Shown here: one piece after another, positions 5,639 to 47,149 of the stretch
Layout of the letters: each line of letters opens with the position of its first letter
Numbering within the stretch: the stretch's first letter is position 1
DNA from: an uncultured Acidobacteriaceae bacterium
GTDB lineage: Bacteria; Acidobacteriota; Terriglobia; Terriglobales; Acidobacteriaceae
Length of the DNA: 64,000 nucleotides
Reading direction: 5' to 3'
Assembly (NCBI GenBank): GCA_963794965.1
Contig: CAWCFQ010000004.1
Coordinates: 654,789-718,788 of the forward strand
Position numbers and translations under genes: made by a program
The notes under the pieces: model-generated
What the model was told of the DNA's origin: nothing
Databases searched by the model: none
The model's input: only the letters and a program-made list of their open reading frames with translations

Positions 5639-6049
5639 ATGGTCTATCTCACACGCAAAGCTGAATTCTCCGCCTCGCATTACTACCACAACCCGGAATT
5701 CACTCCGGAGGAGAACCAACGCCTCTTCGGCAAGTGCAATAATCCCAATGGCCACGGACACAACTACACTCTCGAAGTGACGGTGAAGGGAGCCGTCGAT
5801 CCCAAGTCGGGCTTCGTCGTCAACCTGAAGCAATTGAAGGATGTCATGAGCAGGGAAGTGCTCGACGCGCTCGACCATCGTTTCCTGAACAAAGAAGTGC
5901 CCGAGTTTTTCACCAGGATCCCGACCACGGAGAACCTCGCCATCGTCATCTGGCAGCGCCTCGCGCCCAAACTCACCGCTACCCAATTGCACCGCGTCCG
6001 CGTCTACGAAACGCCCGACCTCTTTGTCGATTTCTATGGGGAAGCATGA
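5639..6049 (+). CDS. 6-pyruvoyl-tetrahydropterin synthase, eukaryote-like type (PTPS/QueD superfamily)
   Basis: FGKCNNPNGHGHNY, LDHRFLN and TTEN motifs, and overall collinearity with animal PTPS as I remember it. Confidence 0.85.
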   Translation: MVYLTRKAEFSASHYYHNPEFTPEENQRLFGKCNNPNGHGHNYTLEVTVKGAVDPKSGFVVNLKQLKDVMSREVLDALDHRFLNKEVPEFFTRIPTTENLAIVIWQRLAPKLTATQLHRVRVYETPDLFVDFYGEA

Positions 6050-35091: not shown

Positions 35092-35454
35092 GGTTTGCCT
35101 CTTTTCTTGATGTGACCCCCACGACGGGGGCGAGAGAGGCAATAGGAACAGCCGCACTGGAGGCGCGGCGTCACAGGCAACCGTGGAATAAATGAGGGGC
35201 AGCCCGTAGGGAATCATCGTTTATGCCGCGAAAGTGCCTTGACGCAAGCCTGCGGCTGTTAAGTTGACTCCGAACCCGTCCGTTAGTGGGTCACAGGAAG
35301 AGGCACGATGACGAGGACCATACGTCGGCGAGGTCGCGAATCCCACAACGCACGGAATGGTGACAGTTCTCGACGAGGACATCCCCTTTTGAGGAAGACA
35401 GGCTGGTAAGCTAGGTCCTAGCAGTGACGGTAACTCTAGTTGGAAGGCGTAGGT

Positions 35455-36501
35455 ATGAGAGTTGCACGGCTGGAGATCAGGAATTTTCGCGGTATCAAGA
35501 GCGCCTGTCTTGACTTCGCCGGTCATACCCTGCTCCTCGGTATGAACAATGTCGGAAAGTCCACCGTCTGCGAAGCCCTCGAATTAGTGCTTGGCCCGGA
35601 GCGTCTGTCAAGGTTTCCTCCAGTCGAGGAATTTGATTTTTACAACGCGCGATACCTTGAGGATGATGGCGAGACACCAATCCCGATTGAGATCGATGTA
35701 ACGTTGACCGAACTCTCCGAGGAAGTCGCCAACAAGTGCGCTCCACACGCTCATCATTGGCATTTAGACAAAAAAGATGTCCTGGGTCAGGGCGAGGCTG
35801 ATGTCGTCGATGATCCCCGCGTATGCGAATGTCTCAGGCTCAAAACTATCGCTTCGTACAATCGGGAGGAAGACGAGTTTGAGGCCCAAACGTTTTTCGT
35901 CGACGGCCCGCCGAATTCCGAGGGCGGGCTTGCCGGAGTTCCAAGAAACATAAAACGGCTCTTCGGCTTCTTGTATCTACGCGCTCTTCGCACCGGATCC
36001 CGCGCGTTGAGTCTTGAGCGTGGGTCACTTCTGGACATCATCCTCAAACAACGTGACATTCGCACAGGGATCTGGGAAACCACCATCAAGCGGCTAAGAG
36101 AGCTTGACCCTCCAATCCACGAGGGGGCCGCCGATTTGGGGCCGGTGTTGGAAAATATCGAAAAACGCCTTGGCCAGTATATCCACCTGGAAACAAATGG
36201 TCCCGCCACGCAGCTTTTCGTGTCGCAGTTGACGCGAGAGCACCTCAGAAAGACAATTAGTTTCTTCCTTAAAACGTCGGCCGGTCAGGACCCGGTTCCC
36301 TTCCAGGAGGTCGGCACGGGCACGCTCAATACGCTTGTTCTCGCGTTGCTGACTTTTATCGCCGAGATTAAGAAAGACAATGTGATCTTTGCCATGGAGG
36401 AACCGGAGATTGCCCTACCCCCGCACACGCAACGGCGCATTGCCAATTACCTGCTCCAAAACACAACGCAGTGCTTGGTCACCTCTCATTCACTGACCTG
36501 A
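35455..36501 (+). pseudogene. OLD/AAA15-type ABC ATPase, 3'-truncated by an IS element
   Basis: RLEIRNFRGIKS, Walker A GMNNVGKST, Walker B VIFAMEEPEIALPP and H-loop LVTSHS. The ORF then reads L-T-stop from the IS terminal repeat TGACCTGA. No Toprim or other C-terminal domain follows. Confidence 0.8.
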
Positions 36502-36888: not shown

Positions 36889-37761
36889 GTGAGTGAGCGG
36901 CGGGCGTGCCGAGTGGTGCGGCAATGGCGAGGAACACAACGCTATGTGCCGCTGCGGCGCACGGACGAAGACGAGCTAACGCAGGCGATCCTGGCCCTGG
37001 CGGCGAAGTATGGGCGGTACGGCTACCGGCGCATCACGGTGCTGTTGCGGGATGCGGGGTGGCCGGTGGGGAAGGATCGAGTGCAGCGGATCTGGCGACG
37101 TGAAGGGCTGAAGGTACCGCAGAAACAGCGGCCACGAGGGCGGTTGTGGCTGGGCGATGGTTCGTGCGTACGGTTGCGACCGGAGCGGGCGAATCATGCG
37201 TGGAGCTACGATTTTGTGAAAGCGATGACGCACGATGGACGAGCGCTGCGTATCCTGGTGCTGATCGACGAGTATACGCGGGAGTGCTTGGCGTTGCGGG
37301 TGGCACGGCGCTTGGGGAGTTTGCAGGTGATCGAAACGTTGGCGGATGTGATGTTGCTGCGCGGGATCCCAGAGCACATCCGTTCGGACAATGGGCCGGA
37401 GTTCATTGCCAAAGAGTTGCGGAAGTGGCTGGGAAAGCTGGGCACGAAAACGCTCTATATCGAGCCTGGGAGCCCGTGGGAGAACGGGTACTGTGAGAGT
37501 TTCAACGGGAAGCTGCGAGATGAGTTCTTGAATGGCGAGATCTTCTACTCGCTGAAGGAGGCACAGATTCTGACGGAGAGGTGGCGCGTGGAATACAACA
37601 CGGAACGGCCGCACTCGGCACTGGGCTACAGACCACCGGCGCCACAAGCCATCTTGCCGAACCAAGAGGGGCATGGAGATATGGAAAACGCTTCGCGTTT
37701 CCCACATCCCCACACCCCCGGCGACGACTACGGACAATTGTCCAAAGAGGCGTTACACTAA
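36889..37761 (+). CDS. IS3-family transposase OrfB (DDE integrase core)
   Basis: WSYDFV, LIDEYTRECL, IRSDNGPEF and PGSPWENGYCESFNGKLRDEFLN motifs. Probably expressed as an OrfAB fusion. Confidence 0.9.
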   Translation: MSERRACRVVRQWRGTQRYVPLRRTDEDELTQAILALAAKYGRYGYRRITVLLRDAGWPVGKDRVQRIWRREGLKVPQKQRPRGRLWLGDGSCVRLRPERANHAWSYDFVKAMTHDGRALRILVLIDEYTRECLALRVARRLGSLQVIETLADVMLLRGIPEHIRSDNGPEFIAKELRKWLGKLGTKTLYIEPGSPWENGYCESFNGKLRDEFLNGEIFYSLKEAQILTERWRVEYNTERPHSALGYRPPAPQAILPNQEGHGDMENASRFPHPHTPGDDYGQLSKEALH

Positions 37762-38239: not shown

Positions 38240-39118
38240 TTATATGCCGGGCCAATTCTCGGATGAGAAATACTCAAATATCGCGTGTGCCACAACCAAG
38301 GCGAATCGGGCGTCCTGGCGAGAGATGGGCGTCGGGCTTTGCGCTGTTGGCAGTGGCTCGTGTGGGCCGAGATGTAGGAACTGGCGGAACGCGGCGAATG
38401 AATCCAGAAGTTTGTCACGAACACCTGCGTGGGCGTGAGCGAGCATCTTCTCCCACGTACTTCTATCGATCTCCTTTGCCGAGTAGCACTCTGCCATCGC
38501 GTTGAATGCTGAACGCAATTCCGTCAACACATGAGGATAGTCCCCAATTCGGTAAAGTTCCTCAGCCCGTCCTAGTCGCGCACGCGCCGTCGCCATTTCC
38601 TTTCGGCTGTCTCCGGGGAAGTTGACCTCAAGCAATCTCAGGTCAGATACTCCCCAAGCCTTCAGCGCCGTATCAATCCAGTGCGAACGTGGAACTGTGA
38701 CCTGAAGAGTCATATCCTGTAGCCGTTCAAATTCGTTGGTCTGTTTCAAGGCTACCAACCCGGACAAGATGATTCTCAAGAGCAGATTGCTTCCGCTGCG
38801 AAGTTCTTCGATATGTTTTATCTGCGTCAGCGTCAGCGGCACGCTCAAGTTCACTGTTCGGTCATAGGGATTCGGCATCGAATCTTCGGCTATAGGCGGA
38901 TGCTCGACCGTCGCCACAGGGTGATTTTCATTCGACACGTAAATCTTGCCGCTCACTCTCAATAGCGTGTAGGTTGTCGGGCCGAGCGGGAGAAGTTGGA
39001 ACTTCAGCCCCAAGACCAATTGAGGATTCGCTGGCCCGCCCGTTCCGATAATGTCGGTCGATTCAAGACGAACTCGTCCGACCCCGTTCCCTTTGACAGT
39101 AAACGTAGTTTCACTCAT
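38240..39118 (-). CDS. Uncharacterised protein: beta-rich N-domain plus helical C-domain with a DUF4145-like pattern
   Basis: 292 aa with ATG 5 nt after the upstream stop. The C-terminal pattern is RAEELYRIGDYPHVLTELRSAFNAM...FRQFLHLGPHE...ISRQDARFALVVAHAIFEYF. Confidence 0.65.
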   Translation of the reverse strand: MSETTFTVKGNGVGRVRLESTDIIGTGGPANPQLVLGLKFQLLPLGPTTYTLLRVSGKIYVSNENHPVATVEHPPIAEDSMPNPYDRTVNLSVPLTLTQIKHIEELRSGSNLLLRIILSGLVALKQTNEFERLQDMTLQVTVPRSHWIDTALKAWGVSDLRLLEVNFPGDSRKEMATARARLGRAEELYRIGDYPHVLTELRSAFNAMAECYSAKEIDRSTWEKMLAHAHAGVRDKLLDSFAAFRQFLHLGPHEPLPTAQSPTPISRQDARFALVVAHAIFEYFSSENWPGI

Positions 39119-39123
39119 CGGAT

Positions 39124-39624
39124 TTACCGAGTGGTTCTGGCGAGGTCTCGCATTTTTCTGACAGTCAACTCTGCCATCTTCTCAGGCGTCACAACGCTGT
39201 CCCCGTATCCAATTCCGACTTCACTGTCGTGGTTCAGACGAAAGTGAAAAAGAAGTTCCGGCTGCTCCCATACGACAAGCCGGATTCCTTGGGGCGAGTA
39301 GTGGAAATTCCAGCTTATGATGTTCGGCCGGTAGCGGATGTTGTGCCACGTGACGTTGACTTGGCAACTTGTCGTCCCTTGTGGAGATGTGCTCCCAGAG
39401 AGTTCTTCACCCACAAGGTTCGGCAGAGCGTCAGTGTTGACTTTGAGTTCTTTGAGAAAACGCTGGAATACCTCCGGCCCTTGATTCGCAACTCGCCCCG
39501 CTGCGTCTACGGCTCGTTGGCTACGAGCCTCAGCCTCAGCAGCGGCACGATGGGTTGCCGCGTTCTGTTGCTCAATCCATTCGGTACTCACAAGCAAGAA
39601 TCCTCTACCGCAACAGTAGCACAA
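39124..39624 (-). CDS. Uncharacterised protein
   Basis: 166-aa ORF from TTG 39624. The GTG at 39591 is preceded by AGAGGA and is the more likely start. No family recognised. Confidence 0.55.
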   Translation of the reverse strand: MCYCCGRGFLLVSTEWIEQQNAATHRAAAEAEARSQRAVDAAGRVANQGPEVFQRFLKELKVNTDALPNLVGEELSGSTSPQGTTSCQVNVTWHNIRYRPNIISWNFHYSPQGIRLVVWEQPELLFHFRLNHDSEVGIGYGDSVVTPEKMAELTVRKMRDLARTTR

Positions 39625-41492: not shown

Positions 41493-41501
41493 TGTAAAGA
41501 A

Positions 41502-41595
41502 GTTAGAGGTCAGAAGTCAGATTGCAGAAGTAAAACCCGCGAACTCTTGACCAAAGGGTTTTACTTCTGCAATCTGACCTCTAACCTCTGACCTC
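41502..41595. repeat. Long hairpin with 23-bp perfect stem plus GAGGTCAGA word arms
   Basis: gtcagattgcagaagtaaaaccc (41516-41538) pairs perfectly with gggttttacttctgcaatctgac (41556-41578) around a 17-nt loop. The flanks are gttagaggtcagaa / ctctaacctctgacctc. Confidence 0.8.
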
Positions 41596-41597
41596 GC

Positions 41598-42773
41598 CTA
41601 CGATGCCACCTCAATCTGCCCCGTAGTCTGATCCGACCGAAAGCGCAGCAGCGCCGCGATGTTCCCGGCGTTATCCAGATCGCTGTGTTCCTTGAGGTAG
41701 AACAATTCGATGTCGCGACGGATCGCGATCGGAATGATGGCATCCGAGACGTCGGCGAGTTCGCGAGTGCGGCTTCCGCAAGCCACGCACAACGGGACGA
41801 CATGCGCATCGATGTGGCCGCAATTCGGGCACTCAACCGCCCGAGCCGAATAGTTTTCAGCGAGAAAAATGCTCTGCACTTCCCCGGTTTCCAATGCGCG
41901 CAGCACGCGGCGCAGGCCGGTGACCCCGCGTCCGTTGGACTTGGCAAGATCCACCGCTTCGCTCGCCTTCCGCGAAGCGCGTTCCGCCATCCAGCGATTC
42001 AGGACGGCGCCGGCGTGATCGCGAATCTCTTCATTCGAAACGCTGGCAACGTCAGCAGAGAATCGCCCAATCAAGCGCTGCTTCACGTAAGGATGCAGGT
42101 GGGCCTCGAACTCCGGCCAGTTGGCATCCTGGCAACCGACAATGAGCCGCTCCCAGATACCTTTTTCGAAGTCGATCCGCAAGCGCTCGGAAACCGACTT
42201 GAAATGCTGGAGCGCTTCTTCTGACACACGCCGTTCCGCATGTCCGCCTTCGTAGCCGTTGTATCCGTAGCTGGAAGCGTTGCGCGAGAGCATATGGACT
42301 ATGGCTCCGCGTTCCCGCAGATCATCCAGTCGGAGATCAAAGATGCGGGCCCGCTGCCGGTCGACCATGGCCACGCACAGCGCCGGTTGCGCTCCCAGCA
42401 AAGCTGCCAGCGGTTTCAACTGAAAGCGGGGTTGAAGATAAATTTGCGTGCCTCCAAGATGCGGCGGCAATTCGTACTCCCTCCAGAAATTCTGAGCCGA
42501 GCAGGCGAACACTGCCCTTCCGCGGGCATTCCCGCGCAGGTTCGTGGCCACCTCCAGCACGCGATCCAGGTCGGCATGCAGCGATCCGTTCTTGCCGATC
42601 GCGGCCGCGCTTTTCAGCGCCTGCTTCACCACATCTTTGGCAACAATGACCTCACGGCGATGCGAGCGATCCTGCGGAGGATCGGGCTGGAAGTAGAAAC
42701 TCAGGGCACACGCCCCTTTGTTTTCGTCCACTTGAAAGGCCGCCAACTCACGGATTTCATCCCGGGTCATCAT
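41598..42773 (-). CDS. eRF1/Pelota-like (baeRF-type) protein with C-terminal zinc ribbon
   Basis: N-terminus ACALSFYFQPDPP...R is typical of bacterial aeRF1-like families. GLRRVLRALETGEVQSIFL resembles eRF1 domain 3. A CPNCGH...CVACGS ribbon is present. Assignment is from recalled patterns only. Confidence 0.6.
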   Translation of the reverse strand: MMTRDEIRELAAFQVDENKGACALSFYFQPDPPQDRSHRREVIVAKDVVKQALKSAAAIGKNGSLHADLDRVLEVATNLRGNARGRAVFACSAQNFWREYELPPHLGGTQIYLQPRFQLKPLAALLGAQPALCVAMVDRQRARIFDLRLDDLRERGAIVHMLSRNASSYGYNGYEGGHAERRVSEEALQHFKSVSERLRIDFEKGIWERLIVGCQDANWPEFEAHLHPYVKQRLIGRFSADVASVSNEEIRDHAGAVLNRWMAERASRKASEAVDLAKSNGRGVTGLRRVLRALETGEVQSIFLAENYSARAVECPNCGHIDAHVVPLCVACGSRTRELADVSDAIIPIAIRRDIELFYLKEHSDLDNAGNIAALLRFRSDQTTGQIEVAS

Positions 42774-42814
42774 CTCGACGCTCCTTAAATACTGAGATGC
42801 TGGTTCTGAGCCGC

Positions 42815-43861
42815 TTAGATTCGAGTTTTGACCAAGAGTTCCTGGTGGAACTCGTTGGCAATGGAAGGCGCGGAGCGAACGCAGTCGCGCGCCCGCTGCA
42901 CGGACTCGCGCACCGCCTCCACATGCCGCCCGGTGATGGCGGCAATTTCGTTGAGGGAAAAGCCTTCTATGCCGTAAAGCAGGAAAGCTTCACGGTCGGT
43001 GCGGTCGGCCCCGCGGAGAGCGGCTTGCACCAAAGCAATCACTTCGTCGGAGTACGCCGCCTGCTCCGGAGTAGACACCCGGCGATCGGGGATAGCGCTT
43101 TCCCGCGTCCAACCCTCGTCCGGCTGATGGAATTGCAATCCAACTTCGTCCGAAGCTTGGACATTCTGACGGCGGCGGCTGTCTTCGAGATGCAGAGCCT
43201 CGGGACTCTCCAATTCACGAAGGCGCGCCGTCATCTCGTTCATCGCTTGCAGGGCAAGGTGGTAAAGCCAAGGCTCGAGCGATAGTTTTTCCGGACGGTC
43301 GTTACCCCCGAGAGCTCGCGCGATGACTTCGTTCACCACCTCGGGGGTGGAGAGACCATCCTCCGGAATCTCCTCGTCGGCGCGGCGGAAATGGAGCTCC
43401 CGCTCCACAAAACGCTCGAGGCGGCCAAGGTTCACGTTCACATAGGAGCCGATATCGTCGGCGGAAATCGTAGGCGGCATGACCGCTGCCAGCGTCTGCT
43501 CGAAGGGCACGCCGGGCTCCGGAGATTCCTGCGCCCCTCCGCGCCAGCGCCGCCATTTGTGGCTCGAGCGCAGCAATTCCTTATGCCGCCCGATCTGCTG
43601 GATGAGTTCGTCGAAGGCAGCCTTGATGGCCGCGGTGGCGCTGGGAGCTTTCTCTTGGACCGTCAGTTGGCCCGAGGGCAAACGCAGATTCAAGGAGACC
43701 AGCGTTCCAGGGCGCGTCGAATTCTGATCGACAATGGCTTTCAAATGAACCAGTTCAGGCCGGAAGACCTGAATCCGCTTCTGAATTTTTTCGATCTGGT
43801 GGCTGATTTCTTTTTCGATGTCGGGAGTTTTGTGGACCTTGTAACTGACGTGAACGTTCAT
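42815..43861 (-). CDS. Fusion protein: N-terminal HPF/RaiA (S30AE) ribosome-hibernation domain plus C-terminal ECF-sigma-like regions 2 and 4
   Basis: From ATG 43861, MNVHVSYKVHKTPDIEKEISHQIEKIQKRIQVF...LNLRLPSGQLTVQEKAPSATAAIKAAFDELIQQIGRHKELL is collinear with E. coli HPF. The C-terminus carries PWLYHLALQAMNEM (region 2-like) and REAFLLYGIEGFSLNEIAAITGRHVEAVRESVQRARDCV (region 4 HTH). Confidence 0.7.
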   Translation of the reverse strand: MNVHVSYKVHKTPDIEKEISHQIEKIQKRIQVFRPELVHLKAIVDQNSTRPGTLVSLNLRLPSGQLTVQEKAPSATAAIKAAFDELIQQIGRHKELLRSSHKWRRWRGGAQESPEPGVPFEQTLAAVMPPTISADDIGSYVNVNLGRLERFVERELHFRRADEEIPEDGLSTPEVVNEVIARALGGNDRPEKLSLEPWLYHLALQAMNEMTARLRELESPEALHLEDSRRRQNVQASDEVGLQFHQPDEGWTRESAIPDRRVSTPEQAAYSDEVIALVQAALRGADRTDREAFLLYGIEGFSLNEIAAITGRHVEAVRESVQRARDCVRSAPSIANEFHQELLVKTRI

Positions 43862-44023
43862 TTTCGAGCCTCGAACCCGGAAAGAAAGTCCGTGAAGCTG
43901 CGACCCTGACAAATTCATTGTACACCCGGTCGGAAGGAGCGAAACCGCCTTTGGTGGCAAGGTGGCATCCCGGCTCTCATCTTCAAATGGGGGCAGGACT
44001 ACGCGTCATTAAGAGAATCAGAT

Positions 44024-45289
44024 TTATTGTCTTGGAGTCACAGCCAGGCGCAACCGGCTCGCCACTGGTCGACCATCTTTGAATGCCGGAATGAATTTCC
44101 AGGCCAATGCTGCGTTGATAAGGTCTGAGTCCACGTTTTTCACTTTCCCCGCCGGTTCGGCCGATCTCACTTTTCCTGCTCCGTCAATCACAAGATCCAG
44201 GAACCATTCCGCCTCCGCCCCGCCCTGCCGCCGAACCTTCGGCACGGGAGGGCGCAGAAGCAGGATGGCCCTAGGAGGGATGACCTCCAATTTGCGGTTC
44301 GGTCCCGACCGGCTAACAGCGTCAAATATGTGCGCACGTTTTTCCCTGCCCCGAGGAGAACCCGTGGACACACCGTCAGCTTGACTGTGAATTCCACGAG
44401 CCCGAGCACTCTCCAGGGCGGCATGAATCCGATCGACATCGGCAGCAGGCCACATTTCAGCCAGGGAACGCCAAGCCTCCTGCTCGCGTCCGCTGTAGAG
44501 ATAAGCCCAAACGAGTTCCAAAATTTTGATCTTCGCCATCCGCAAGCGGTGCAACCGCTCCGCGGACGTGGAGGGTGTTGCCACCAATTTGCCATCGCTG
44601 CCTTTGAAGTCTTCCAGATCCTGCGAGCGCATCCCAGCCCGTATTTTCGCGATTGTATCGTCGAAGTAACGTTGGAACTCGGCGCTCACATCCAGCAATC
44701 GTCCGTGTGCAAACCGGAAAGCCACGCCCGGAGCCGAGTCCAATTCGCCCAAGGCCAGATTTTCGAAGCCATTCAGCGCAGCCGCATCTGTAGTCCAGAT
44801 TTCGGCCCTTCCATCAAGATCGATATCCGACGCGCTGTAGAAATCTCCTCCGGTAATGGTGCGCAATAAACGCGGCGGCTTTTCCAGGGAATAGAGCTTA
44901 TATTCCATGCAGCAGTCAGCGTCGGACTTCTTGATCTGAAAAGCGGCCATCGGGATGCCATCCCCCAGGTCCACGCCGAATGCGTCGAGATCAAGCTGCG
45001 CCACGCCCGTTGCGACCACCAGTTCTTGGTTTTCCCAGCTAAGCTTTGCCGCGCAAGCACGCGTCGCCAATTCCCCGTTTCGCGCCGCCCCCACGTGCAC
45101 CCTGATCCCAGTGCGAAACTCCGCATCAAAACTTCCGCTCCCGCCATTGCAAAGGACGCGATCCTGCGTTTGACAAAGGCTCAGCGTCGTCCAGAATACG
45201 CACCCGAGAAAAATCCCCGCTGCGGCCAACCGGCGACAGAGCCAAGCACGCGGAAAAAGCCCGTGAAGCGGCAGTCCGAACAAGCCCAT
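44024..45289 (-). CDS. Secreted hypothetical protein with TonB-C-like C-terminal domain
   Basis: Signal/anchor AAAGIFLGCVFWTTLSLCQ, an FG-GAP-like ASDIDLDGRAEIW, and a C-terminus LINAALAWKFIPAFKDGRPVASRLRLAV. Confidence 0.55.
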   Translation of the reverse strand: MGLFGLPLHGLFPRAWLCRRLAAAGIFLGCVFWTTLSLCQTQDRVLCNGGSGSFDAEFRTGIRVHVGAARNGELATRACAAKLSWENQELVVATGVAQLDLDAFGVDLGDGIPMAAFQIKKSDADCCMEYKLYSLEKPPRLLRTITGGDFYSASDIDLDGRAEIWTTDAAALNGFENLALGELDSAPGVAFRFAHGRLLDVSAEFQRYFDDTIAKIRAGMRSQDLEDFKGSDGKLVATPSTSAERLHRLRMAKIKILELVWAYLYSGREQEAWRSLAEMWPAADVDRIHAALESARARGIHSQADGVSTGSPRGREKRAHIFDAVSRSGPNRKLEVIPPRAILLLRPPVPKVRRQGGAEAEWFLDLVIDGAGKVRSAEPAGKVKNVDSDLINAALAWKFIPAFKDGRPVASRLRLAVTPRQ

Positions 45290-45351
45290 TTGTACACCCG
45301 AAGGAACGGAGTGGAACCGCGCTCAAGGCGAGTAGCTCGAAGCTCGCCGCT

Positions 45352-46723: not shown

Positions 46724-47149
46724 TTACTGCGGTTGCGGTTCGCTTGGCGGAGGCGGAGGCGGCGTACCCATGCCGCCATGGTGCATCATGCCCGGATGCG
46801 ACATGCCTCCGGGACCCATGTCCTCCATGTGTTTCATCATCTGTTCCATGTGGCCAACCATCATCGTCCACATGTCCACGTTGGCTTGCCAGCGCTCCTT
46901 CTCCGCGGAATCGCTGATCTTGGCCACGTTGCCTTTCAGTTGCTCAAGCGACGCCTTCATCTTGTCCACGTCAGCCTTCATGGCGTCCATGTGCTGTTTC
47001 TGCATCTCCATCATCTGATGATGTTCCATGCCCATCTGACCGGGGCCGCCCTTGGCGGGAGGCGCTGCTGGCGGTGCGCTCTGCGTCTGCGCCCACGCCA
47101 GAGATGCCAGGGCCAAAATCACGGTAAACAAAACGCTCTTGTGATTCAT
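46724..47149 (-). CDS. Secreted Met/His-rich protein (possible periplasmic Cu/Ag-binding protein)
   Basis: Signal peptide ending LAWAQ, followed by MGMEHHQMMEMQKQHMDAM ... MMVGHMEQMMKHMEDMGPGGMSHPGMMHHGGM and a Pro-rich tail. Confidence 0.6.
   Translation of the reverse strand: MNHKSVLFTVILALASLAWAQTQSAPPAAPPAKGGPGQMGMEHHQMMEMQKQHMDAMKADVDKMKASLEQLKGNVAKISDSAEKERWQANVDMWTMMVGHMEQMMKHMEDMGPGGMSHPGMMHHGGMGTPPPPPPSEPQPQ

Follow-up and report, generated by a model that had tools for sequence, protein, structure and literature searches.

In a preprint of November 2025 (bioRxiv 10.1101/2025.11.04.686544), chimeric HPFs were described that are without the dimerisation domain and are fused to SigE, their genes often adjoining those of Balon, and the chimeras were read as repaired hibernation factors. 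A study published in 2026 (PMC13392368) named 'HPF-SigE' as a sister class and solved the structure of the chimera HPFcold, whose fused C-terminal domain acts on the ribosome. The baeRF families were defined by Burroughs and Aravind (2019; PMC6514570), who found recurrent linkage to HPF and proposed non-catalytic blocking of the A site. Balon itself (Helena-Bueno et al. 2024; PMC10901736) is a relative of aeRF1 without the GGQ and NIKS motifs that binds in the A site of ribosomes also bound by RaiA. Its genes most often adjoin raiA, and genes for Hsp20, HdeD and alternative sigma-70 factors are found in their vicinity as well. Here we describe a gene pair of this kind in a 64,000-nucleotide stretch of contig CAWCFQ010000004.1 from an uncultured Acidobacteriaceae bacterium (assembly GCA_963794965.1, positions 654,789 to 718,788), referred to throughout as the window. 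One gene encodes an HPF domain fused to a sigma-factor-like module and the other a baeRF family-10 protein (baeRF10). A first-pass annotation of the window had considered this architecture undescribed. That view is outdated, as HPF-SigE beside Balon was reported in the 2025 preprint and the class was named in the 2026 study; nor is the coupling of the two genes new, given the baeRF-HPF linkage of 2019 and the adjacency and co-binding of Balon and RaiA reported in 2024. The locus belongs to the recently named HPF-SigE class, of which it is a clean and well-conserved example, and its partner gene encodes a GGQ-less baeRF10 with a zinc ribbon. The best explanation of the pair, and one that we hold to be right about as probably as wrong, is that it forms a two-gene ribosome-hibernation module in which the sigma half may provide a coupling to RNA polymerase.

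Comparison with the described systems helps to place the locus. As in the HPF-SigE class, an HPF N-domain and a SigE-type module share one polypeptide and the dimerisation domain is missing; a Balon-type gene is often adjacent in that class and some copies are on plasmids, although the partner here is baeRF family 10 and not Balon proper. The HPF-SigE class is known only from domain-architecture surveys, and the acidobacterial clade, the baeRF10 partner, the promoter and 5' untranslated region (UTR) and the linker motif reported below are not described in the papers on it. With the Balon and RaiA system (Psychrobacter urativorans; Rv2629/MSMEG_1130; PMC10901736) the locus shares a factor derived from aeRF1, lacking GGQ and NIKS, that is encoded beside an HPF-family gene. 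Balon and RaiA bind one ribosome together. Balon also carries a beta-hairpin that contacts EF-Tu at the C-domain insertion site where baeRF10 has a zinc ribbon and, unlike RaiA, the HPF partner here bears a sigma module. The match of baeRF10 to the model of baeRF-1 family 10 (PMC6514570; PF18854) is above threshold and the linkage to an HPF gene is the same, but a conserved catalytic glutamine is stated for that family, and the window protein and four distant partners have no GGQ-type glutamine. HPFcold (CBU_0020 of Coxiella burnetii; PMC13392368) and long HPF have the same succession of HPF N-domain, linker and a different C-terminal domain for nucleic-acid binding or interaction; in them this last is a cold-shock or dimerisation domain, and here it is an acidic two-domain sigma-like unit.

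The sigma half also invites comparison with sigma factors and their mimics. Extracytoplasmic function (ECF, group IV) sigmas such as sigmaE, SigW and EcfG have the same sigma2-linker-sigma4 order and the same patterns in regions 2.2, 2.4 and 4.2, and the model of the fusion superposes on them. Unlike these, the fusion adds an N-terminal HPF domain of 100 amino acids; neither a cognate anti-sigma gene nor an autoregulatory promoter of the ECF type accompanies it, and it is sub-threshold for the curated sigma70-ECF model and without a Sigma70_r2 match. PhyR resembles the fusion in that a sigma-like domain is joined to a sensing domain, and the Pfam model PhyR_sigma-like scored 26.0 against a cut-off of 27.0, just sub-threshold. 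PhyR differs in its receiver domain (no Response_reg was found in the fusion), in its domain order and in its NepR-like partner, of which there is none here.

The fusion gene (42815 to 43861, minus strand) is an uninterrupted open reading frame (ORF) of 348 amino acids, and the baeRF10 gene follows it on the same strand. The coordinates and the 41-nt spacing given in the first-pass annotation were exact on checking against the sequence. Read as far upstream as it is open, the fusion ORF would begin with a TTG (43960), but the homologues, of 346-348 amino acids and with the N-terminus MNVH, indicate that translation starts at the ATG; this is preceded by GAGG, within a ribosome-binding site GAGGC at 43868-43872. 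The 41 nt from the fusion stop to the baeRF10 start include a ribosome-binding site AAGGAG, and no terminator-like site was seen in this gap. The arrangement of the two genes suggests that they are co-transcribed.

The N-terminal half of the fusion is an HPF domain. Pfam detected Ribosomal_S30AE (PF02482) at residues 9-96 with 31.6 bits against a cut-off of 23.7, and E. coli HPF aligned end to end with residues 1-99 of the family profile (hhalign probability 95.2%), this profile being built from 36 diverse members of the fusion family. In an AlphaFold2 model of the fusion, which has a mean predicted local distance difference test (pLDDT) score of 83, residues 1-100 exceed 90 and adopt the beta-alpha-beta-beta-beta-alpha fold expected of HPF. 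Foldseek superposed the domain on HPF/YfiA structures with template modelling (TM) scores up to 0.86; those for the V. cholerae and E. coli proteins are 0.84-0.86. The domain has a net charge of +6 and a conserved C-terminal helix, Q..KHK..LR, two features that give indirect support to a predicted binding of the 30S decoding region. All of this bears out the HPF/YfiA assignment made in the first-pass annotation. Its further claim, that sigma-like segments replace the dimerisation domain of long HPF, was likewise sustained, as Pfam gave no match to Ribosom_S30AE_C even at E<=1 and the C-terminal half is sigma-like.

The modelled layout is an HPF domain at residues 1-102, disorder at 106-127, three helices at 134-218, disorder at 220-262, a four-helix helix-turn-helix domain at 265-330 and a terminal helix. 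Region 4 was recognised directly by Pfam (Sigma70_r4_2, residues 287-326, 31.1 bits against a cut-off of 25.7). Residues 171-331 of the family profile aligned with residues 45-185 of E. coli sigmaE (hhalign probability 97.7%), covering regions 2.2-2.4 and 4. In phmmer searches ECF sigmas of the PDB aligned to region 2 and region 4, the latter to sigmaE, AlgU and SigE, and Foldseek aligned the C-terminal 190-220 residues, which include both sigma domains, to SigW, sigmaE, AlgU, EcfG and CnrH. Precomputed PF04542 or PF07638 matches are also present in some relatives of the fusion. Within the three-helix domain the middle helix, EVxDE..AL (residues 172-185), corresponds to region 2.2 and W198-L-Y to regions 2.3/2.4. 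The HPF and region-4 calls are solid, and that of region 2 is backed by profile and fold and not by curated thresholds. The proposal that sigma-70 regions 2 and 4 are both present was upheld by Pfam for region 4 and is supported by hhalign and Foldseek for region 2, which the Pfam model Sigma70_r2 did not detect. That HPF and sigma-like segments are fused in one ORF is borne out by Pfam, homologue lengths, Foldseek and hhalign together.

Among the 36 diverse members the HPF, sigma2 and sigma4 domains are similarly conserved, with pairwise identities of 0.33-0.45, against 0.16-0.28 for the linkers. The helix at 172-185 is the peak of conservation of the whole fusion (0.45), and W198 of the WLY motif is nearly invariant. 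Region 2.2 is generally regarded as the main determinant of binding to the RNA polymerase core. The net charges of sigma2 and sigma4 are -8 and -3, respectively. The linker at residues 103-132 is among the least conserved regions (0.18), and some relatives have insertions here. As a separate observation, an acidic motif, LQFHQPDE (residues ~241-249; 43115-43141, minus strand), lies inside the disordered, variable linker between the sigma domains and is kept throughout the family down to about 25% identity; P247 and E249 are retained in at least 75% of the 36 members.

The partner protein belongs to a distinct baeRF family. PF18854 (baeRF_family10) matched residues 119-254 with 65.0 bits against a cut-off of 27.1, and homologues carry the same precomputed domain. 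A profile of orthologues matched structures of aRF1 (4af1, E=1e-5; 3agk, E=2e-5), Balon MSMEG_1130 (8v9j, E=0.0036) and also Pelota. The NCBIfam models of the Balon family (MSMEG_1130, Rv2629 and AOC03_06830 RHF) gave 38.1, 37.3 and 29.5 bits against cut-offs of 480, 320 and 330, respectively. On these comparisons the partner is a separate baeRF family, about equally far from Balon and aRF1. The loop that aligns with the aeRF1 GGQ has no glutamine; in it G170, G173, Y174, G177 and H178 are invariant in baeRF10 orthologues, as are R181 and R182 just beyond. GGQ is absent from the window protein and from four distant fusion-linked family-10 proteins (Binatia, L096, L097 and L099), and a direct reading of the N-domain found no NIKS. 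The four cysteines of the zinc ribbon (C315, C318, C329 and C332) are invariant among orthologues; the ribbon aligns with the CxxC of the C-terminal domain of Halobacterium aRF1 and is mostly retained in the Binatia and other distant partners. The baeRF-like identity and the CxxC...CxxC ribbon noted in the first-pass annotation are in this way confirmed. Its reading of a stalled-ribosome or release-factor-like domain did not hold up as well, a release or rescue hydrolase not being likely when both GGQ and NIKS are lacking.

Relatives of the fusion are numerous. At the 90% identity level more than 120 clusters contain full-length relatives that are 87-95% identical, all from Terriglobales/Acidobacteriia assemblies; they are named 'HPF/RaiA family ribosome-associated protein' by NCBI and sigma-70 factors by JGI. 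An exhaustive HMMER scan of 1.84 billion representatives returned 732 clusters, defined at 50% identity, with E<=1e-3. For 358 clusters the value was E<=1e-10, and the full-length matches extended down to ~26% identity. With a 15-sequence subset of the family as query, at least 579 fusion stretches were confirmed in GTDB species genomes, and full-length relatives occur in hundreds of Acidobacteriota genomes. For comparison of the loci we used the best 80 of these at least 579 stretches, all from Acidobacteriota and with fusions 60-94% identical to that of the window; more distant contexts, outside the best 80, were drawn from plasmids and individual contigs.

In 74 of the 78 evaluable Terriglobales loci baeRF10 lies directly downstream of the fusion on the same strand (two of the 80 end at a contig edge), and the pair is kept even where the fusion is only ~60% identical and the flanking genes are unlike those of the window. 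The gene is cleanly absent from the other four, in which no baeRF remnant was found. Four distant contexts also have the pair. In a Candidatus Binatia genome, baeRF10 is 21 nt downstream of a fusion that is 28% identical; it adjoins the fusion on contigs L096 (fusion 41% identical) and L099; and in L097 the order is reversed, within a run of genes for ClpB-like protein, rhomboid, ClpP/NfeD-like protease, Hsp20, baeRF10 and the fusion. Conservation of the pair across genomes, which the first-pass annotation had left to be surveyed, is evident from these Terriglobales loci and distant contexts. Two copies of the pair with the same flanks are apparent in some metagenome-assembled genomes (e.g. 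L004 and L077), for which redundancy of the bins is as likely an explanation as paralogy. In the window the neighbours of the pair are housekeeping genes, for asparaginase, an aminotransferase, LptF/G, a metallo-beta-lactamase (MBL) hydrolase and SecG, and the 64 kb contain neither a second HPF gene nor a related sigma gene. A role of the pair in anti-phage defence was also considered and rejected, neither the fusion nor the baeRF10 protein having a PADLOC match.

Other subclades of the fusion are found among stress genes. Homologues on proteobacterial plasmids are 22-30% identical over 80-95% of the protein and occur in two settings. On plasmids of Brucella anthropi (pOANT01), Paracoccus yeei and Shinella the order is MarR, FtsH, a large AAA ATPase, the fusion and HdeD, in some with YfdX, and in Paraburkholderia the fusion lies between three Hsp20 genes and GroES-GroEL-DnaK. 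In a second acidobacterial clade it is beside ClpB, Hsp20, BON, DUF308/HdeD, a DegP-like protease, Usp and PsiE, and in another member the order is BON, fusion, GrpE, DnaJ, MerR, ClpB and Lon; no baeRF gene was found in contexts of these last two types. Across the relatives the set of neighbours includes Hsp20, ClpB/ClpG-like, FtsH, GroES/EL, DnaK/DnaJ/GrpE, Lon, DegP-like, HdeD/DUF308, YfdX, Usp and PsiE, and some subclades are in plasmid islands of the heat-resistance type. The preprint mentions an E. coli plasmid case, and a search for it with the Brucella plasmid fusion gene against complete E. coli genomes gave no match.

Three features of these distant loci may be recorded separately. 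In the second acidobacterial clade an ORF of 34-36 amino acids overlaps the 3' end of the fusion by 8 nt (L089, 7127-7237; L090, 1390-1500; L091, 7121-7225) and might encode a small co-translated partner of the fusion in that clade. On the proteobacterial plasmids HdeD is in the equivalent position, with a 4-nt overlap with the fusion gene in L003 and L085. In L088, units of 7 nt (GAGATCT/GAAATCT) are repeated in a long tandem run at ~5840-5985, directly upstream of the ribosome-binding site of a fusion of the second clade.

Table 1. Positions of the features of the fusion-baeRF10 locus in the window.
Feature	Window position	Strand	Protein residues	Basis or remark
HPF/RaiA (S30AE) domain of fusion	43556-43861	minus	1-102	Pfam, hhalign, Foldseek; pLDDT >90
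Linker with basic start WRRWR, then variable; predicted disordered	43466-43555	minus	103-132	pLDDT ~46-52
Sigma region-2-like three-helix domain	43208-43465	minus	133-218	hhalign, phmmer, Foldseek
Sigma2-sigma4 linker, predicted disordered	43076-43207	minus	219-262	pLDDT ~50
Sigma region-4 helix-turn-helix, recognition helix VRESVQRAR	42872-43075	minus	263-330	Pfam, PDB ECF alignments, hhalign; pLDDT ~90-97
Variable C-terminal helix and stop codon	42815-42871	minus	331-348	Predicted helix 332-346; pairwise identity 0.16
baeRF family-10 protein, three aeRF1-like domains	41598-42773	minus	391 amino acids	Pfam, PDB profile matches
Loop GYNGYEGGH at aeRF1 GGQ position	42240-42266	minus	170-178	Orthologue and distant-partner alignments; HMMER to 4af1, 3agk
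Zinc ribbon CxxC-x10-CxxC in C-terminal Pelota/L7Ae-like domain	41778-41831	minus	315-332	Orthologue alignments
Promoter-like element GGTGTACAAT	43917-43926	minus		TACAAT -10 hexamer, conserved GGTG just upstream; 56-65 nt from the ATG
5' UTR with near-invariant AGCTTCAC motif	43862-43910	minus		Locus alignment
Near-perfect hairpin, ~45-bp stem, arms of RRTYAGA 7-mers	41493-41593	minus		Minimum free energy (MFE) -71.9 kcal/mol, z = -12.9

The region upstream of the fusion contains a 10-mer, GGTGTA[C/G]AAT, that occurs once per locus at the same position, ~56-68 nt before the ATG, and is invariant throughout the 80 Terriglobales loci. L096 has it too, and L099 has it as GGAGTAGAAT. We infer from the sequence that this element is a promoter, sigmaA-like rather than ECF-like. 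A candidate autoregulated ECF promoter was looked for upstream of the fusion and none was seen, the invariant element being sigmaA-like. The conservation of this upstream region (43862-43926, minus strand; L004-L083, L096 and L099) exceeds that expected of an ordinary promoter. In the UTR, GCTTC (43894-43898) is able to pair with the GAGGC of the ribosome-binding site around an inner hairpin. RNAalifold predicted a 5-bp helix between the Shine-Dalgarno (SD) and anti-SD sequences without covariation, the single-sequence z-score was weak (-0.66), and CTTC:GAGG pairing was present in 52 of 73 MFE folds, with shuffled controls likewise pairing strongly. An RNA thermometer in the UTR is unsupported: the predicted pairing of the ribosome-binding site is unchanged from 20 to 45 C, there is no covariation and the shuffled controls pair also.

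It is suggested here, with roughly an even chance or better of being correct, that the HPF domain and baeRF10 act as two plugs of a single hibernation module, one on the 30S subunit and the other in the A site. The basic HPF domain would bind the decoding and mRNA-channel region of the 30S subunit of vacant ribosomes, like HPF and RaiA, and baeRF10 could fill the A site as a non-catalytic plug without releasing peptide, in parallel with Balon and RaiA on one ribosome. In place of the dimerisation domain of long HPF, a flexible linker would tether a full ECF-type sigma2-linker-sigma4 module. The most likely extra function of this module is binding to the RNA polymerase core, because its conservation matches that of the HPF domain and peaks at the region-2.2 helix. 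Binding to RNA polymerase is favoured over binding to rRNA because of the complete architecture, a conservation equal to that of HPF, the region-2.2 peak and the acidic surfaces. The fusion may then partition between ribosomes and RNA polymerase, and translational shutdown would be coupled to a stress or proteostasis transcription programme. A sensor linking ribosome state to transcription, as the first-pass annotation had proposed, would agree with how strongly the sigma half is conserved. In support of the hibernation module, the identities of the domains, an intact fusion, a partner without GGQ, the conservation of the domains and of the pair, and the stress-gene neighbourhoods are established here. 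Ribosome binding, joint occupancy, and RNA polymerase or promoter binding we infer from sequence and from the analogy with described factors.

Several points weigh against a hibernation module that is coupled to RNA polymerase. The conserved upstream element resembles a housekeeping extended -10 and not an autoregulated ECF promoter, and no anti-sigma gene is present among the neighbours of the pair (baeRF10, MBL hydrolase, SecG and asparaginase). The fusion protein has no Pfam match to Sigma70_r2 (PF04542), and the NCBIfam sigma70-ECF model TIGR02937 aligned to residues 174-329 with 38.4 bits, below its cut-off of 42.9. The L3 loop of sigma2, which in ECF sigmas reads the -10 element, shows poor conservation among members of the family (pairwise identity 0.21). 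The case of HPFcold shows that fused domains are able to act on the ribosome (PMC13392368). Our literature search found no experimental work on the HPF-SigE class, and the AlphaFold model of baeRF10, at a pLDDT of 51.6, was too poor for comparison with Balon and its HP motif and bL27 trap. As for the pairing itself, the fusion can act without baeRF10, because the gene is missing from four Terriglobales loci and from most of the distant subclades.

These points are given different weight by other explanations of the locus. It might be argued that the main role of the protein is that of an ECF-type sigma factor with a stress or proteostasis regulon, with the HPF domain as its regulatory module, vacant ribosomes serving as the anti-sigma and baeRF10 tuning availability. 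An intact sigma2 and sigma4, a highly conserved region 2.2 and a sigmaE-like recognition helix in region 4 would all fit such a protein, as would the many members annotated as sigma-70 family by JGI and NCBI; relatives lie inside islands of chaperone and protease genes, a setting in which one would look for a regulator of their own, and there is no separate anti-sigma gene beside the pair. We nevertheless regard this as unlikely, if still worth serious consideration, because sequestration on vacant ribosomes would turn the sigma off just when stress empties ribosomes, a poor fit to a stress regulon, and the tight pairing with an A-site factor suggests a ribosomal role. The invariant sigmaA-like -10 in place of an ECF-like autoregulatory promoter, the poorly conserved L3 loop and the sub-threshold sigma70-ECF and Sigma70_r2 models speak against it too. 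The same L3 loop and the missed Sigma70_r2 could instead mean that the sigma half has lost its function in transcription and has replaced the C-domain of long HPF as a module for ribosomal anchoring, for binding rRNA or ribosomal proteins, or for oligomerisation. HPF N-domains with varied C-terminal modules acting on the ribosome provide a precedent (long HPF, HPFcold, RafH and archaeal HPF-CBS), the fusion scores near the model for PhyR, a non-transcriptional sigma mimic, and the preprint (10.1101/2025.11.04.686544) treats the chimeras as repaired hibernation factors. We hold this reading to be improbable, however: conservation is highest at a helix usually taken to bind the RNA polymerase core, and not on a basic RNA-binding surface; the charges of sigma2 (-8) and sigma4 (-3) are unfavourable for rRNA binding, and both sigma domains are kept, order included, down to about 25% identity. 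A further possibility, which we consider doubtful, is that the sigma half is a working RNA polymerase-binding module and that one polypeptide bridges both machines, with either a sigma factor whose supply depends directly on the number of vacant ribosomes free to bind its HPF domain, the ribosome acting as anti-sigma, or the RNA polymerase core parked on hibernating ribosomes near the 30S platform, both machineries being stored as one, and baeRF10 sealing the A site.

Two other explanations concern the partner and the gene itself. If baeRF10 were an active peptidyl-tRNA hydrolase or rescue factor, it could free stalled chains before the fusion locks the ribosome. Burroughs and Aravind (PMC6514570) list family 10 among the few that keep a glutamine of the catalytic type, and the full three-domain layout of aeRF1 is kept here together with the zinc ribbon, but the GGQ position is occupied by GYNGYEGGH with an invariant G..GY..GH and the glutamine missing, the distant fusion partners (Binatia, L096, L097 and L099) are without GGQ and the N-domain is without NIKS. 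A catalytic release or rescue role is on this evidence unlikely, and the scheme in which such a hydrolase clears ribosomes ahead of the fusion appears very improbable. That sequencing or assembly had joined two separate genes has next to no probability. The ORF is open for 348 codons, and the same architecture and full length are repeated in thousands of independent assemblies and on complete plasmids, which also answers the concern over a frameshift raised in the first-pass annotation: these are not two genes. An artefactual fusion is excluded. For the sigma half this leaves a coupling to RNA polymerase, a true sigma factor gated by ribosomes and a scaffold on the ribosome. The two-gene hibernation module with a sigma half that may be directed to RNA polymerase is retained as the best explanation.

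Other features of the window are less closely connected with the pair. Two copies of the fusion promoter with its 5' UTR, at 45256-45320 and 43885-43948 (minus strand), form a diverged direct repeat of 71-77% identity with a spacing of 1371-1372 nt. They flank an ORF of 421 amino acids (44024-45289) with a TonB-C-like end, carried on a 1.37-kb segment that is present in the window and one close relative (L004); the annotated N-terminus of this ORF is the translated UTR copy. The segment looks like an upstream insertion that duplicated the promoter and UTR. Directly after the baeRF10 stop is the long hairpin listed in Table 1, the exact sequence of which is unique to the window, although about 10 of 67 loci have related repeat-armed hairpins there. 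A terminator, a stabiliser or a palindromic repeat element are possible identities for it, and it does not belong to the conserved parts of the system. The only Rfam matches, to microRNA precursors, were spurious and caused by this hairpin.

Elsewhere in the window, an ORF of 353 amino acids (35440-36501, plus strand) matches the N-terminal 341 of the 600 positions of Gabija GajA (PADLOC, 496 bits) and is followed by an IS3-type integrase gene (36889-37761, plus strand); this looks like a defence gene that was cut short next to a mobile element. The region is adjoined on the minus strand by two ORFs without annotation, at 38240-39118 and 39124-39624. A secreted-looking protein of 141 amino acids (46724-47149, minus strand) is very rich in Met and His (MEHHQMMEMQKQHMDAMK...) and has no Pfam match; it might bind metal in the periplasm.

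Bacteria enter dormancy mainly in two ways, by ribosome hibernation and by sigma-factor switching, and the two have been studied separately. A conserved protein that combines HPF with a full ECF-sigma-like module, and that has a Balon-like A-site factor as its partner, suggests itself as a candidate for connecting hibernation and sigma factors directly, and its importance would rise sharply if it is true that the sigma half binds RNA polymerase. The locus supplies domain boundaries and conserved targets for mutation (E174/V175/E178, W198 and LQFHQPDE in the fusion, and H178 in baeRF10), together with a conserved promoter-like element and UTR for experiments. The family is abundant in soil Acidobacteriota and occurs on proteobacterial plasmids in chaperone and heat-resistance islands, and its function therefore bears on the dormancy of soil microbes and on transferable stress tolerance.

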